DNA from: Syntrophaceae bacterium UBA6087 | GTDB lineage: Bacteria; Desulfobacterota; Desulfomonilia; UBA1062 | Reading direction: 5' to 3' | DNA length: 64,000 nucleotides | Assembly (NCBI GenBank): GCA_002448235.1 | Contig: DIXF01000002.1 | Span: 249,706-313,705 of the forward strand | In this document: positions 27,656 to 34,386 of the stretch, piece by piece | Position numbering within the stretch: position 1 is the stretch's first letter | How the letters are laid out: each line of letters starts with the position of its first letter | The notes under the pieces: model-generated | Seen by the model: the letters and a program-made list of their open reading frames with translations, nothing else | Told to the model about the DNA's origin: nothing | Databases searched by the model: none | Made by a program: the position numbers and the translations under genes

Positions 27656-28546
27656 TTAAAGAGATCGTTCTCCTTCCTCGAGGGCGTTGAATCCCGATAT
27701 GATATCGAGCAGTTCCTCGGTAATCGAGACCTGCCGTTCCTGGTTGTACTGGTTTTTCAACTCGCCGAGCCTTTCCTTGATATTCTTTTCTGCCCCCTGC
27801 ATAGATGAGAGTCTTGCTGCGTTCTCGCTCGCCAAAGACTCAGTGAATGCGTTGAAAATGGATATATTGAGATGGTGTCTCACCAGGGCGGAGAAGAGCG
27901 TTTCGGCCTCCATGCGGAACACCGGCAAATTCCTGGTGGGCCAGGGTTTTCCGGTAAGGCTTTCCAGCCACTGTCTGTCAAGGGGCAGCAGCCGGAGCAT
28001 GCGGGGTTCATACGAAGCCCCTGAGATGTGGTGATTGTATTCGAGCAGGACCTGCCCAATCCTGTACCGGCTGTTCCATTGATCGATGGTTGTGATGATC
28101 TCCTGCACGGTGGGAGGCATACCATCAGGCGATAACGGCACCGGGATAAGGTCCTGTATCGGCAGGCCTTCACTCAGGAGGCGGGTATGAATCCTTTGTC
28201 CTACGCACAGGATCAGAACGTCCTGAGAGCTTATTTCATGGCTTTTGATGGTATTCAGGGTGTGCTCGGCGATCCTGTCGTTGAACTGTCCGCATAGCCC
28301 CTGATCCGATCCGAAAACCAGGATGCCGGTTGGGCCGGGTCCCTGCCGCTGGTCTTTTCCGGGGGGAAGGTTCCTGAGCAACCCGCGGAAAGCGAGCAAG
28401 ACCGCCCTGTTGTATTCCTTGAGAGATTCCTGGATCCTCTCGTATTCGCGGATGTTTACCGAAGCGAGGGCCTTCATGGTCTTGACCACGGAGAGGAGGT
28501 CTTCGGCAGTGTCATGCTTCTTTTTCAATACCTGGAGATCGGGCAT
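27656..28546 (-). CDS. atpG: N-ATPase gamma subunit (AtpG)
   Basis: N-terminus [10 protein letters not shown]...[13 protein letters not shown]-terminal [16 protein letters not shown]. Last gene of the operon. Confidence 0.8.
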
Positions 28547-30101
28547 CTTCTTTCCTTTGGATATATGCATCCGCAGTCTCCCGGGCGATCCTGACGAGAG
28601 ACTGCCAGTCCTCGTCCGAAAGGTCTTTGTCGGATTCGATTCTTTCACAAATTTCCGGAAGGAGTTCTCTGACCGAGGATCTGATGGCCTTTTCCACGGA
28701 AGTGATGTCTTCCATAGGGATACGGTCGAATACTCCTCTGGTGACGGCAACGAGTACGGTGATCTGTTCACAGGGGCTCATGGTATCGTATTGAGACTGC
28801 TTTAGGGATTCTCTGACGCGACGTCCCCTCCCAAGGATGCTCAGCGTCTGTTCATCGAGCCTGGTGCCGATCCTGGAGAAGGTTTCGAGCTCTTCGAACT
28901 GGGTGTAGGAAAGCCTCAAGTCTCCCGCTACCACCCGATAAGCCCTGCGCTGGGCTTTGCCGCCGACCCGGGATACCGATCTGCCGACATCCACCGAGGG
29001 AAGCTGGCCTTTATGGAAGAGTTCGGGCGAAAGGTAGACCTGACCGTCGGTAATGGAGATGAGATTGGTGGGGATATATGCGGAGATATTCTGGGCCTGT
29101 GTTTCCACAATGGGGAGCGATGTCAGAGAACCGCCTCCGAGCGCATCATTCAGATGCCCCGACCGTTCGAGCAGGCGCGAGTGTATGTAGAAGATGTCTC
29201 CGGGAAAGGCCTCACGTCCGGGTGGTCGTCTCAGGAGGAGAGATATCTCGCGATAGATCCTCGCATGCCTGGTGAGATCGTCATATACGATCAGGACATC
29301 CCGGCCACTGTCCAGGAAATATTCGCCGACTGTCGTGGCGCTGTAAGGAGCGGTATACTGCAGGCCGGGGGGGTCTTCGCCCACGGCCGTCATTACCATT
29401 GTATAATCCATTGCGCCCTGTTTCGTGAGCTCGGAGACGACCTTGGCGATAAAAGAGCTCTCTTTCCCGATTGCGCAGTATATGCAGATGATGTCCTTGC
29501 CTTTCTGATTGATGATGGTATCCAGTGCGATGGCGGTCTTGCCGGTCTGGCGGTCGCCGATGATGAGCTCGCGCTGCCCTTTGCCGATGGGGATGAGCGT
29601 ATCGATCACCTTGATCCCTGTCTGCAGGGGTTCGGTAACCGGGAGCCGGTCCATGATATCGGGCGCCTTCCGCTCGACATACCGGTATTCGACGGCGGTC
29701 ACGGGGCCTTTGTTGTCACGCGGCCTGCAGACTGCATCCACGACCCTGCCGATCAATCCTTCGCCCACCGGTACCTCGAGAACCCGGCCTGTCCGGTGAA
29801 CCTCCATGCCCGAAGAAAGGTCGCTTCCTTCATCCAGCAGCACTACCCCCACACTGTCGATATGGATGTCGAAAGCGATCCCCAGCCTGTTGCCGGGAAA
29901 TCGGATGAGCTCTTCTGCCTGGACGCCGGGCAGCCCTTTTACCCGTGCGATCCCCTGCTCTACCTGGGTCAGAATGCCGGTCTTCAAGATCGTGAGCTCG
30001 GGCCGGTAGCCGTCCAGTACACTCCGGGTAAGAGGAGAGGTTTTTTCCACAACCCGTAAGATGTCGGCCAGCAGCGATAGTCCTCCTTCCGCTTCACTCA
30101 T
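28512..30101 (-). CDS. atpA: N-ATPase alpha subunit (AtpA)
   Basis: Walker A GDRQTGKT, plus the alpha signature. The start ATG overlaps the atpF stop (ATGAGTGA). Confidence 0.9.
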
Positions 30102-30888
30102 GTGCGATCTCCCGCTCCCGGTGCTGACCGAAGGTATCGATAATGGACCGGGAGACCTTTTCCTCAATGTCCTCAAGAAACTGGTCTGCGTTCCAGCCGA
30201 CCTTGTATCCGTCGGCGCTCACTTCTATGCCCAGGCTCATAGCAGGGGAGTGCAGAAAGCGGACGGCAACGTTTTCGGAAAACACCTCTTTCAAGGTTTC
30301 CGAAATCGTGTGACGTACGGCGTGGTCCGGATCGAATGAGCTGGTGACGGTGAAAGTATTATCCCTTTTCCGGACAGCTGAAGCCAGATTATTTCTCTGA
30401 TCGGGATCGATTCCTTTCAATCGCTGTATGAAAACGTCAACCACTCCGGCTTCAATATCTTTTCCTGCAAGATCCCCGATGACGCGTTGCGCGATGCGGG
30501 TTGAGTCCTGAATGCTCATGAGCATAAGCCGCTCGGAGAGATCCTTTTTTTTCTGATCGAGGATATCGCGTTGCCGGATCATCTCTTTCCCGGCATCGTC
30601 TTGTGCCTGCCGGAGATATTCCTCACGCTTCCGGCCGGCCTCCAGAGCGGCCTCTCTCAAGATCTGCTCTTTCTGCTCCTGAAGTCTGACATTCTCCTGC
30701 CGGTATGCATCAAGCTCCTGCGCTGCCCGTTCCTGCTTTTCCTTTGCATCGTCGAGCTGGGCAGCGATCTGCTCTTTGCGTTCGCGCATGGCGGTCCTGA
30801 TCCGGCCGAAGAGGAAAAATCTCAGAAGCGCGACCAGGATCAGGAAATTGACTATCTGTGCGATTACGGTAAACCAGTCGATAATCAC
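30094..30888 (-). CDS. atpF: N-ATPase b subunit with a C-terminal delta (OSCP)-like extension. No separate delta gene is present.
   Basis: A single N-terminal TM helix, a long charged coiled coil ([29 protein letters not shown]...), then an approximately 100-aa delta-like C-terminal domain. Confidence 0.8.
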
Positions 30889-32253: not shown

Positions 32254-32596
32254 TGGCTCTACCGTCCTTCCGCTGCATTCCTTTCCGGGCTTTTATCTTC
32301 AGCATGGTCTTTACCCAGAACCATGCATTCAGGCAGCCGAGGATGAGCCCGATAAAGAGCAGCATCAGCGTCCACGAGTATTGACTGGGGAATCGCGAGT
32401 CAATCCATGCCCCAAGCGCTATTCCGATGAGGGTGGGGATGATTACCGACCACCCCACGAGCCCGACCATGCCCAGCCCATACACCAGGCTTATTTTTCT
32501 TTCGCGCTCAGCCTTCTCCTTTCTCTTCTCCTTGACGTCGATTTGTCTGACAAACCTTTCTCCCCGTCTTTTCTTCTTTTCCTGGAAATTAGACAT
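32246..32596 (-). CDS. atpQ: AtpQ (AtpZ/AtpI-like, PF09527-type) N-ATPase accessory membrane protein
   Basis: Lys/Arg-rich N-terminus, then 2 TM helices (GLGMVGLVGWSVIIPTLIGIALGAWID). 8-nt overlaps with both neighbours. Confidence 0.7.
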   Translation of the reverse strand: MSNFQEKKKRRGERFVRQIDVKEKRKEKAERERKISLVYGLGMVGLVGWSVIIPTLIGIALGAWIDSRFPSQYSWTLMLLFIGLILGCLNAWFWVKTMLKIKARKGMQRKDGRANE

Positions 32597-32996
32597 ACTG
32601 CTTCATTCCGAAATCGAAAAACCTGCGAGCTAGATCAGCTTCAAGCCGGAATGCTGCTGCGCGCACCTTTTTCCCCCGTTCGATTTCGGCCGCGAATTCC
32701 TTTTGGACGGTTTCCTTCAACAAGGATAGTTCGGTGCTGCAGACTGCCCGAGTAGTAGAAACGAGCACATCTCTCCCTACTTTGACGAGAACGCCTTCTT
32801 CAATAGCCACATAGCGCAGGCCTCCCTCCAGAGGGGAAAAGATAAGGAGTCCCGGGACGAGAGACGTGATGAAATCGACATGCCTGGGAAGCAAACCGAA
32901 AAATCCGTTTACGTCTTCAGCGACAACCTTTTTCACCGCTGTATCGATGAATGTACGTGTCAGTTCAATTATCTTAAGATTCATTTTTGGCCTCAT
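32589..32996 (-). CDS. atpC: N-ATPase epsilon subunit (AtpC)
   Basis: 135 aa in the epsilon position after beta, with a beta-sandwich N-terminus and a helical C-terminus. Confidence 0.7.
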
Positions 32997-34386
32997 CGAT
33001 AGACCCGATCATATAAAGCGAGCTTTCCGGATATGAATCGAATTCTCCGTTCATGATTTTTTCACAGCCGTCAATGGTCTCCTCGAGCAGGACCGACTTC
33101 CCCTTGTATCCGGTAAACTGCTCCGTGACCACGAACGGCTGGGTGAGGAAGCGCTCCAGTCTCCGTGCACGGCGAACTGTTTCCCGGTCTTCCCGCGAGA
33201 GTTCCTCGATGCCCAGCATGGCAATGATATCTTTGAGGTCTTCATAGGTGGCAAAATAATTGATAACTTCCTGGGCAACCTGGTAGTGGCGCTTCCCGAC
33301 GACAAGGGGCACAAGCATCTTGGATCCGGACTGCAGGGGGTCTATGGCCGGGTAAAGGCCTTCGCTTGCCCTTCTGCGCGACAGAACAATGGATGCGGAG
33401 AGGTGACCGAAAACATGCTCGGCTGACGGATCGGTAAAATCGTCTGCAGGGACATAAACTGCCTGCACGGATGTTATCGAAGCCTGTTTCGTGCTTGCTA
33501 TCCTTTCTTCCAGGTCAGCGAGCTCGCTCGCTAAGCTCGGCTGGTATCCAAGCCGGGAGGGTATCTGTCCGAGCAGGCCAGATATTTCCGCGCCTGCCTG
33601 GATGAATCGGAAAATATTATCGATGAGCAAAAGGACATCCTGCCCGAGATCGTCTCTGAAATACTCCGCCATGGTCAATGCCGCATGGCCTATCCGGAAC
33701 CTCACCCCGGGAGGCTCATTCATCTGGCCGAAAACCATCAGAGTATTCTTGAGGACGTCCGCTTCTTTCAACTCCCGGTAAAGCTCCTCACCCTCCCGTG
33801 TACGCTCTCCTATGCCGCAGAATATGCTTACTCCCTTGTACCGCTTGACCATATTCTCGATCATTTCCATGATAAGGACGGTCTTGCCGACGCCTGCGCC
33901 GCCAAAAAGGCCGCTCTTTCCACCCAGTTCAAGGGGGGCGATCAGGTCCAGGATTTTTATGCCTGTCACGAATATTTCCGATTTTGCAGACTGCCTGCTC
34001 AACGGCACTCCTTGACGGTGGATCGATCGTCTGGGGAGATTTGCGGGAAGGGCTTCTTTTCTGTCGATCGGCTCACCGAAAACATTGAAAACCCTGCCAA
34101 GAAGCTCTTTGCCTACCGGGACGGTTATGGATTCCCCCGTGTCCTCGATAACTGCTCCCCGCTCAAGTCCGGCAGTGGGGGTAAGTGCGATTCCGCGTAT
34201 ACGTTCGTGGTCGATATGTTCCAGCACCTCTATGAAGATTTCTTCTCTGCCCGTTGCTTTGAGCAGATTATAGATAGGCGGAGGACCCTGGGGAAAGTAT
34301 GCATCGACTATGCTGCTTCGTACCGTAAGGACCGTTCCTGTCCCGTTCCGGCTTCTCTTGACCGCGGAAGAAAGATCCTTTGCCAT
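32974..34386 (-). CDS. atpD: N-ATPase beta subunit (AtpD)
   Basis: Walker [18 protein letters not shown]-like region, Walker [17 protein letters not shown] Shine-Dalgarno before the ATG at 34386. Confidence 0.9.

Follow-up and report, generated by a model that had tools for sequence, protein, structure and literature searches.

N-ATPases were defined as a family by Dibrova, Galperin and Mulkidjanian in 2010 (PMC2881411), and the ProAD catalogue holds 1,807 of them, roughly half predicted to be of the Na+ type (PMC11738941). The gene order atpDCQRBEFAG is used as an identification criterion (PMC2881411, PMC11738941), two conserved intramembrane arginine residues are described for AtpR, and a complete c-subunit motif is the rule for calling Na+ specificity (PMC2881411). 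A two-carboxylate Na+ site has been seen crystallographically in the c11 ring of Fusobacterium nucleatum (PDB 3ZK1), whose enzyme couples ATP synthesis to Na+ (PMC3692424). The N-type c17 ring of Burkholderia pseudomallei is H+-specific despite an earlier prediction of Na+ (PMC5376962), so motif-based calls can fail. As cited in the same paper, the N-ATPase of Aphanothece halophytica is reported to be Na+-coupled (Soontharapirakkul et al. 2011, in PMC5376962). In the genus T78 (Chloroflexota) the N-ATPase is mostly the sole rotary ATPase (ProAD, PMC11738941), suggesting that N-ATPases may be able to make ATP.

Organization and family assignment of the operon

The window, the whole 64-kb stretch of DNA that was analysed, belongs to an uncultured deltaproteobacterium, and the record label TOLCLC suggests that its source metagenomes are of the anaerobic enrichment or digester type and not marine. 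On the minus strand, nine intact genes in the order beta-epsilon-AtpQ-AtpR-a-c-b-alpha-gamma (atpDCQRBEFAG) were identified by an ORF map and family assignment. They fill positions 27656-34386 exactly as a sequence-only reading of this DNA had proposed.

32974..34386, minus strand: atpD, N-type F1 beta subunit, 470 aa; TIGR03305; Walker A GGAGVGKT, catalytic GERTREG, DNIFRF
32589..32984, minus strand: atpC, epsilon subunit, 131 aa (135 aa from an alternative ATG at 32996); TIGR03166, PF02823
32246..32596, minus strand: atpQ ("gene 1"), small membrane subunit, 116 aa; PF09527, TIGR02230
31939..32253, minus strand: atpR, N-ATPase-specific membrane subunit, 104 aa; PF12966, TIGR03165
31262..31951, minus strand: atpB, Fo a subunit, 229 aa (alternative start at 31942, with an ATGA overlap); TIGR03306, NF004481, R170
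30931..31200, minus strand: atpE, c subunit with a predicted two-carboxylate Na+ site, 89 aa; TIGR03322, ligand alignment
30094..30888, minus strand: atpF, long b subunit, 264 aa, GTG start; TIGR03321, PF00430, delta-like C-terminal profile
28512..30101, minus strand: atpA, N-type F1 alpha subunit, 529 aa; TIGR03324; Walker A GDRQTGKT
27656..28546, minus strand: atpG, gamma subunit, 296 aa; TIGR03323

The same reading held all nine genes to be translationally coupled. This stands for six of the eight junctions, which overlap by 8 to 35 nt, among them atpQ/atpC and atpA/atpF (8 nt each), atpG/atpA (35 nt) and the atpC/atpD end (11 or 23 nt, depending on the choice of atpC start). It does not extend to the a-to-c and c-to-b junctions, where spacers of 61 and 42 nt, both containing a Shine-Dalgarno sequence (the first serving atpE), indicate that coupling is not operon-wide. 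Within the 64-kb window, part of a contig of roughly 372 kb, no second ATPase gene was found besides the operon.

Whether the locus is of the N type was judged by NCBIfam model scores and best matches in GTDB. The models were the "alternate F1F0 ATPase" set plus the gene-1 (TIGR02230) and Methanosarcina-type subunit-2 (TIGR03165) models, which match all nine products best or near-best. The curated cut-off was passed by seven of them, with a and b falling slightly under: the a subunit scores 296.8 bits with TIGR03306 (cut-off 302.1) and 289.8 with NF004481 (cut-off 227), and the b subunit 216.5 bits with TIGR03321 (cut-off 224.7), with PF00430 over residues 7-121. The beta subunit reaches 763.8 bits with TIGR03305 (cut-off 752) versus 629.7 with the canonical atpD model TIGR01039, alpha 780.4 bits with TIGR03324 (cut-off 750.5) versus 628 with the canonical model, and gamma 296.1 bits with TIGR03323 (cut-off 282.35) versus 139.5 with the canonical TIGR01146 (cut-off 194.45). 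Epsilon (TIGR03166, 123.5 bits, cut-off 100.1; PF02823 also matches) and c (TIGR03322, 145.8 bits, cut-off 130.85) behave likewise. The proposed presence of both AtpQ and AtpR was confirmed, the former by PF09527 (54.1 bits) and TIGR02230 (120.1 bits, cut-off 46.7) and the latter by PF12966 (69.7 bits, cut-off 26) and TIGR03165 (59.1 bits, cut-off 55.5). No operon product matches AtpI (PF03899) in the Pfam and NCBIfam searches, atpQ being present instead. Pfam and NCBIfam together thus returned the expected subunit family for every ORF.

Wherever the contig reaches far enough to tell, the best 80 GTDB matches to beta all belong to N-type operons; the top match is 71% identical, and the window's own genome is not among them. 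When these 80 loci were taken together with four copies of the window's own contig, 50 of the 84 displayed D-C-Q-R-B-E-F-A-G exactly, and most of the others are ends of contigs or sorting artefacts from overlapping ORFs. The order is also found on a Legionella anisa plasmid. These comparisons support the assignment of the locus as a complete N-type atpDCQRBEFAG operon, as far as can be read from sequence. It shares with the family the gene order, the two arginines of AtpR, an AtpQ of PF09527, the lack of atpH, a long b subunit with a delta-like C terminus, a two-glutamate, ESTxxY-bearing c subunit, a GC content like that of the host and acquisition or loss of the operon in one piece. No structural difference between the window's operon and the family was found; it is an intact, ordinary example of an already described variant.

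Membrane subunits, peripheral stalk and ion site

The residues expected in the membrane part are conserved. The essential stator arginine of the a subunit, R170 in AVRLFGN, is present in 99% of 72 homologues. In AtpR, R49 (100% of 72 homologues) and R79 (93%) match the two described intramembrane arginines, and D66 of AtpQ is conserved in 76 of 76 aligned homologues. Both proteins would be accessory membrane components; AtpR, with its two arginines, presumably aids assembly or regulation of the two-glutamate c-ring.

A separate delta gene (atpH) is absent, and there is no ORF between atpF and atpA. In the b subunit a coiled coil precedes a domain resembling the C-terminal domain of delta, at about residues 165-250. 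When the C-termini of 30 N-type b subunits were built into a profile, it matched delta C-terminal domains of PDB entries (7p2y_d residues 96-175, E 1.3e-10); 28 of the 30 match PF00213 (OSCP), and the window's b C terminus scores 97 bits in a leave-one-out profile, its delta likeness being visible only through the family profile. The claim of a delta-like b extension replacing the delta gene was therefore upheld. A comparable arrangement, a b-type stalk fused to delta-like sequence, exists in mycobacteria (PDB 7JG5 chain d and relatives), against which the N-type profile gives E 6.4e-06. However, the mycobacterial protein has 445 aa and a full delta, whereas the N-type b of the window has 264 aa and matches only the delta C-terminal domain (about 96-175 in a delta of 178 residues); nothing in N-type b matched delta's N-terminal helical bundle. 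The peripheral stalk would thus be formed by a long b subunit whose fused domain stands in for the separate delta.

Alignment, together with the PDB matches 3zk1 and 1yce, places E30 on helix 1 of the c subunit and E63-S64-T65-x-x-Y68 on helix 2. Aligned with the I. tartaricus c sequence, whose length agrees with 1yce_A, the residues E30/M61(O)/E63/S64/T65/Y68 correspond to Q32/V63/E65/S66/T67/Y70. The predicted ESTxxY motif and helix-1 glutamate therefore held up, the full ligand set being aligned. In the F. nucleatum c11 ring (sequence match E 3.5e-13) the counterparts are E32/V63/E65/S66/T67/Y70, with the same side chains at E32, E65, S66, T67 and Y70 as at E30, E63, S64, T65 and Y68 in the window. 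That enzyme is a canonical F-type, ATP-making synthase which, unlike the window's, has a separate delta and lacks AtpQ and AtpR. Because the ligand set is the one that binds Na+ in F. nucleatum, the coupling ion is most likely Na+. The B. pseudomallei N-ATPase resembles the window's in operon type, two-carboxylate c subunit (E30/E61), a-subunit arginine and overall architecture, but its ion site reads E-T-M-x-x-Y (T62, M63) versus E-S-T-x-x-Y, and its helix-1 packing motif AxGxAxAxG versus SxGxAxG, so a different ion specificity is expected. By its cited description, the A. halophytica enzyme combines an N-type operon, Na+ coupling and a role in salt tolerance, matching the function predicted here, although its host is a halotolerant cyanobacterium.

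Chromosomal setting

The operon lies in a chromosomal slot flanked by an RpoH-like sigma gene and by pfkB, and four related lineages carry it in this slot too. A relative further off shares the synteny but has a cleanly empty site, from which it follows that the operon was gained or lost as one unit. The event is old. The relatives keep the operon intact with beta identities of 72-92% versus 45-63% for the flanking LonC-like protein, which speaks for selection on it, and in a neighbour-joining tree their beta subunits group in a clade of their own. A single unit would have entered, or later left, the fixed slot, with vertical inheritance since. A related MAG, L054, contains a fragmented second N-type operon.

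A lateral origin is supported by this synteny with the empty site and not by composition. The AT-rich flank at 34440-34900 (GC 0.393; whole intergenic region 34387-35015, 0.426) had been read as consistent with horizontal acquisition, but the window's other intergenic regions range from 0.30 to 0.60 and enclose it, so it is no evidence for that. Nor can the operon be told from the flanking genes by GC, GC3 or codon usage. The 629-nt upstream intergenic region has only one strongly conserved block, common to the related loci L085, L086 and L092, of which the window holds one exact copy:

34504..34530, minus strand: candidate promoter (tentative), TTGAGA-N13-CCCTATTC, about 120 nt upstream of atpD

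In L092, a different small ORF comes after this element.

Coupling ion, direction and physiological role

The reading we prefer, at a probability of about 0.7, is an N-type rotary ATPase that is Na+-coupled and most likely serves ATP-driven Na+ extrusion as an accessory pump, gained or lost as a unit and then inherited vertically. F1 (alpha3beta3-gamma-epsilon) would hydrolyse ATP and rotate the c-ring relative to the stator in the a subunit (R170); each c subunit would probably bind the ion through E30(H), E63, S64, T65 (via water), Y68 and the M61 carbonyl. We infer its status as a secondary ATPase, and with it a second, canonical ATP synthase elsewhere in the genome; the direction under physiological conditions would be Na+ export.

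The enzyme could instead be N-type and H+-coupled, as in B. pseudomallei, and pump protons at the expense of ATP for pH homeostasis or upkeep of the pmf in fermentative or syntrophic growth. The only N-type c-ring examined biochemically proved H+-specific though predicted to be Na+-specific, ProAD predicts 893 of 1,807 N-ATPases to be of the H+ type (PMC11738941), Na+-binding rings are able to carry H+ at low Na+, and the source samples appear not to be saline. Close kin have incomplete motifs, E/ESV/Y in the sister lineage L087 and M/ESI/Y in Smithella and Syntrophaceae. The window's c subunit, however, carries the full set of Na+ ligands, among them S64 and T65 at the positions of T62 and M63 in B. 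pseudomallei, and in F. nucleatum the identical E/E-S-T/Y set holds Na+ in the crystal structure and powers ATP synthesis coupled to Na+, which makes H+ coupling unlikely. That F. nucleatum site also serves the slightly less probable reading of a reversible Na+-coupled ATP synthase running on sodium-motive force, perhaps the main or only rotary ATPase and not an accessory export pump, as do the intact catalytic residues, the lone ATPase locus in the window and the genus T78, in which an N-ATPase is mostly the sole rotary enzyme. Against it, N-ATPases typically accompany an F- or A-type enzyme (PMC2881411, PMC11738941), in M. acetivorans neither growth nor ATP synthesis was affected by deleting the N-ATPase, and the syntenic relative without the operon argues that it is dispensable in the lineage. 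The missing deletion phenotype and the fragmented second operon in L054 could also be taken to mean a laterally acquired relic, silent or in decay, that no longer has a function. This is highly improbable given nine intact ORFs, conserved catalytic and stator residues, preserved overlaps and Shine-Dalgarno sequences, fully host-like composition and retention across lineages diverged to 45% identity in the flanking protein.

For the preferred accessory Na+ pump, a salt-stress role is not obvious, since the samples are apparently non-marine. A speculative and rather doubtful extension is that the operon was captured just downstream of the highly conserved RpoH-like sigma gene and is driven by the conserved element as a sigma-32-like promoter. 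In a non-marine syntrophic anaerobe, ATP-driven Na+ pumping would then belong to a stress regulon or build the sodium-motive force on which Na+-dependent reverse electron transport runs, and would not be a salt-tolerance device; sister lineages in which T65 became V or I would have changed their coupling ion.

By itself the locus matters little, with N-ATPases defined since 2010 and about 1,800 catalogued. Its value lies in a clean, intact operon with a complete two-carboxylate Na+ motif in an anaerobic, apparently non-saline community, and in an unusually clear comparison of filled and empty sites. These features make it a reasonable candidate for biochemistry on Na+-type N-ATPases outside marine organisms, and together with its close relatives it suits the study of residue switching at the ion site (EST, ESV, ESI).

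Gene content and family of the operon

The minus-strand stretch at 27656-34386 holds nine intact ORFs in succession in the order D-C-Q-R-B-E-F-A-G. This order, together with AtpR, defines the N-ATPases (PMC2881411), and ProAD recognises them by the same two features (PMC11738941). Independent gene calls from four public contigs with an identical beta subunit are concordant with the gene map, with slightly different starts for a and gamma.

Genes of the operon, each with its most plausible start, and NCBIfam score against model cut-off in bits
34386-32974, minus, atpD, beta; 763.8 against 752, above
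32984-32589, minus, atpC, epsilon; 123.5 against 100.1, above
32596-32246, minus, atpQ, AtpQ; 120.1 against 46.7, above
32253-31939, minus, atpR, AtpR; 59.1 against 55.5, above
31951-31262, minus, atpB, a subunit; 296.8 against 302.1, just below
31200-30931, minus, atpE, c; 145.8 against 130.85, above
30888-30094, minus, atpF (GTG start), b subunit; 216.5 against 224.7, just below
30101-28512, minus, atpA, alpha; 780.4 against 750.5, above
28546-27656, minus, atpG, gamma; 296.1 against 282.35, above

Pfam assigns ATP-synt_ab to beta and alpha, ATP-synt_DE_N to epsilon, ATPase_gene1 (PF09527) to AtpQ and PF12966 to AtpR (69.7 bits), and the remaining subunits are accounted for by ATP-synt_A, ATP-synt_C, ATP-synt_B and the gamma family. 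The NCBIfam "alternate F1F0 ATPase" models are the top or near-top match for all seven core subunits, a generic equivalog scoring marginally higher for epsilon, c and the like, and AtpQ and AtpR match the gene-1 model TIGR02230 and the Methanosarcina-type subunit-2 model TIGR03165. Canonical F-type models are clearly weaker; gamma, for example, reaches 139.5 bits with TIGR01146 (cut-off 194.45). The profile searches and the gene order thus bear out the identification made in the sequence-only reading. The operon is genuine and complete, of the N-type, and its c subunit is of the Na+ type.

The same reading had described the genes as translationally coupled. Overlaps of 8-35 nt were found at six of the eight junctions, whereas a and c are separated by 61 nt and c and b by 42 nt. 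A good Shine-Dalgarno sequence precedes the downstream gene at each of these two spacers. The description therefore fits the greater part of the operon, with these two junctions as exceptions.

Functional residues of the family are retained. AtpR carries the two described arginines, R49 and R79, present in 100% and 93% of 72 homologues, and AtpQ D66 is invariant among the aligned homologues. The essential stator arginine of the a subunit, R170 (AVRLFGN), is kept in 99% of homologues, and the translations of alpha and beta plainly show the Walker A, Walker B and catalytic motifs. The direction of pumping, the size of the ring and what AtpQ and AtpR do can be predicted from the literature.

There is no ORF separating atpF from atpA, in agreement with the proposed lack of a separate delta gene. 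A delta-like C-terminal extension had also been ascribed to the 264-aa b subunit. A Pfam scan of residues 140-264 as a single sequence did not reach OSCP, and in an alignment of the b C-termini of the window and 29 other N-type operons, 28 of the 30 members matched PF00213. The profile of these C-termini matched residues 96-175 of the Acinetobacter baumannii delta subunit (7p2y_d) with an E-value of 1.3e-10, as well as the Escherichia coli delta subunit and the mycobacterial b-delta fusion. When the profile was built without the window sequence, the window C-terminus was still found over its full length (97 bits), and the delta fragments were still matched. The extension is therefore real, but it is limited to the C-terminal domain of delta: the matches to solved delta subunits are confined to that domain, and the N-terminal helical bundle gave no match to the profile.

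A GTDB scan with the beta subunit, using one genome per species, found at least 80 loci in many phyla, with 63-71% beta identity in the 80 loci among the matches listed. In a set of 84 loci, made up of these 80 and the contig of the window in four copies, exactly the same gene order was listed for 50; most of the other 34 represent contig ends or an apparent reordering caused by start-sorting of overlapping ORFs. A plasmid of Legionella anisa has this order too. In all, 15 plasmids were found to encode betas that resemble the N-type, at 60-80% identity. They include records from Acaryochloris marina MBIC11017 and from Picosynechococcus sp. PCC 7002, two hosts whose N-ATPases on the plasmids pREB4 and pAQ7 are cited in the paper that defined the family (PMC2881411). 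One Terriglobia metagenome-assembled contig (CAWJHI010000045.1, L054:280-12414) has two N-type operons head to head, one intact and the other a series of many short ORFs, possibly pseudogenes or long-read frameshift errors.

A second ATPase was not found in the 64-kb window by blastp or tblastn. Because N-ATPases are typically second copies, the prior is high that the genome also encodes a canonical ATP synthase; ProAD, however, documents a genus that has no rotary ATPase other than an N-ATPase (PMC11738941).

Ion-binding site of the c subunit

In an alignment with the Ilyobacter tartaricus c subunit, the window residues E30, E63, S64, T65 and Y68 correspond to Q32, E65, S66, T67 and Y70, and M61 aligns with V63, a backbone ligand. 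The I. tartaricus sequence used is presumably the correct one, being consistent with 1yce in length and phmmer coordinates. The alignment confirms the full Na+ ligand set and the helix-1 Glu that had been proposed for the window. The resulting two-carboxylate site is the same as that of the Fusobacterium nucleatum c11 ring, which also has a Glu in helix 1. In that ring, Na+ is held by E32, the V63 carbonyl oxygen, E65, S66 and a water bound by T67, Y70 is hydrogen-bonded to E65, and the enzyme is Na+-driven (PMC3692424). The only N-type ring tested biochemically, that of Burkholderia pseudomallei, is H+-specific (PMC5376962), but its site, E30/E61-T62-M63/Y66, lacks the Ser and the Thr present in the window. 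The Aphanothece halophytica N-ATPase is reported to be Na+-coupled (cited in PMC5376962). Both Dibrova et al. (PMC2881411) and ProAD (PMC11738941) call an enzyme Na+-specific only when the full motif is present. As judged from the sequence, Na+ is therefore the best-supported candidate for the coupling ion.

The motif E/EST/Y was found in 41 of 69 related N-type c subunits compared, E/ESI/Y in 12 and M/ESI/Y in eight. All eight of the latter belong to Smithella or Syntrophaceae, and they have neither a helix-1 carboxylate or Gln nor the Thr. The c subunit of the sister-lineage locus L087 (L087:13401-13670) has E/ESV/Y, and deviating motifs also occur at the related loci L007, L010, L020, L037 and L078. 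Such variation among close relatives suggests that N-ATPases have changed between the Na+ and the H+ type more than once.

Upstream region and neighbouring genes

Genes around the operon
20290-27633, minus, one-strand run downstream of atpG: pfkB-type hexose kinase, D-2-hydroxyacid dehydrogenase, FKBP, Fpg, GalT-like uridylyltransferase, TreT-type trehalose synthase, PolX
35016-35783, minus, RpoH/RpoS-like sigma factor, under every equivalog cut-off
35767-37548, minus, LonC-like protein of 593 aa with AAA_32 and LonC_helical domains, without the Lon protease domain
37791-38099, minus, small ORF without a Pfam or NCBIfam match

Conservation in the 629-nt region upstream of atpD is confined to a block at about 34400-34535. 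An Rfam scan of 27000-36000 (E<=1) gave neither a Na+/Li+ riboswitch nor any other leader RNA ahead of atpD, the sole match being a chance snoRNA inside atpA. A structured RNA in the conserved block was rejected, as the consensus fold of four relatives was weak (-8.5 kcal/mol). A sigma-54 promoter was considered because a sigma-54 activator is encoded nearby, and no convincing GG-N10-GC was seen by eye. The conserved block begins with the following element, which is common to the window and the related contigs L085, L086 and L092.

34530-34504, minus, promoter-like element TTGAGA-N13-CCCTATTC

By eye the element resembles a sigma-32-type promoter and may be considered a candidate. It occurs as one exact copy in the window, other matches being at chance frequency. 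In L092 a different small ORF follows it, which makes a connection with the operon less certain. At the other end, pfkB starts 22 nt past the atpG stop and a terminator scan detected no minus-strand terminator after atpG, so pfkB may be co-transcribed with the operon.

The LonC-like gene overlaps the sigma gene by 17 nt. Its product is shorter than LonC (about 800 aa) and has only about 10 close homologues among 5.8 billion proteins. Across the relatives the sigma factor is 93-98% identical, compared with 36-63% for its LonC-like partner. The small ORF upstream was called as 88 aa in the four copies of the window's contig and in L085-L092, including the operon-less L090, with the exception of L091, where a 114-aa ORF is called in its place; the 88-aa ORF is conserved in most relatives examined. 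With a trehalose synthase gene so close to a Na+ pump, the neighbourhood might be one for osmotic stress, but the run containing this gene is also present in L090.

Composition, synteny and the empty site

Horizontal acquisition had been proposed from an AT-rich flank. The GC content is 0.426 in the upstream intergenic region and 0.393 at 34440-34900, which is inside the spread of the other window intergenics (0.30-0.60), so the flank does not serve as a sign of acquisition. The operon itself does not deviate from the flanking genes: its GC is 0.539 and its GC3 0.643, compared with 0.540 and 0.651 for the 43 other window genes, and its codon-usage distance lies at the 45th percentile of resampled gene sets. 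Composition thus gives no signal of horizontal transfer. The window is ordinary chromosome with purH, purD, purE, coaX, xerD-like and amiC-like genes, and no mobile-element genes were found beside the operon. A tyrosine recombinase gene (Phage_integrase and SAM-like N domains; 3401-4285, plus strand) lies 23 kb away, adjoining amidase, AMIN and SPOR genes, and looks like a housekeeping XerC/D and not a mobile-element integrase.

Related loci were collected by a search with the LonC-like protein, followed by retrieval of the contigs of its homologues, and were compared for the site between the sigma gene and pfkB. L092, a short contig, was left out of this presence/absence comparison.

Relatives sharing the chromosomal site (amino acid identity to the window)
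L085 and L086: LonC-like 61-63%, beta 91-92%; operon between sigma and pfkB
L087-L089: LonC-like 45%, beta 72%; operon between sigma and pfkB
L091: LonC-like 47%; operon between sigma and pfkB
L090: LonC-like 36%, sigma 93%, pfkB 61%; operon absent

L090 has a clean empty site (L090:12519-12739), in which the sigma gene is followed by 221 nt and then pfkB. Both flanks are as in the window, with purE, a two-component system, the LonC-like gene and sigma on one side and pfkB, 2-hydroxyacid dehydrogenase, fpg, galT-like, treT and polX genes on the other. A tblastn search of the 21.7 kb of L090 found no N-ATPase remnants (all E-values at least 0.6). Among 85 N-type betas, a neighbour-joining tree built without bootstrap groups those of the window, L085, L086, L087 and L091 to the exclusion of all others. 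These data are most simply explained if the operon was inserted once, as a whole and long ago, or if the L090 lineage lost it cleanly in a single event, and if it has since been inherited vertically and has fully ameliorated. The earlier argument for horizontal transfer was thus based on the wrong evidence, and better evidence exists for gain or loss as a unit. Such behaviour, along with a host-like composition, is known for the N-ATPase family (PMC2881411), and the operon is a routine new member of this well-described family.
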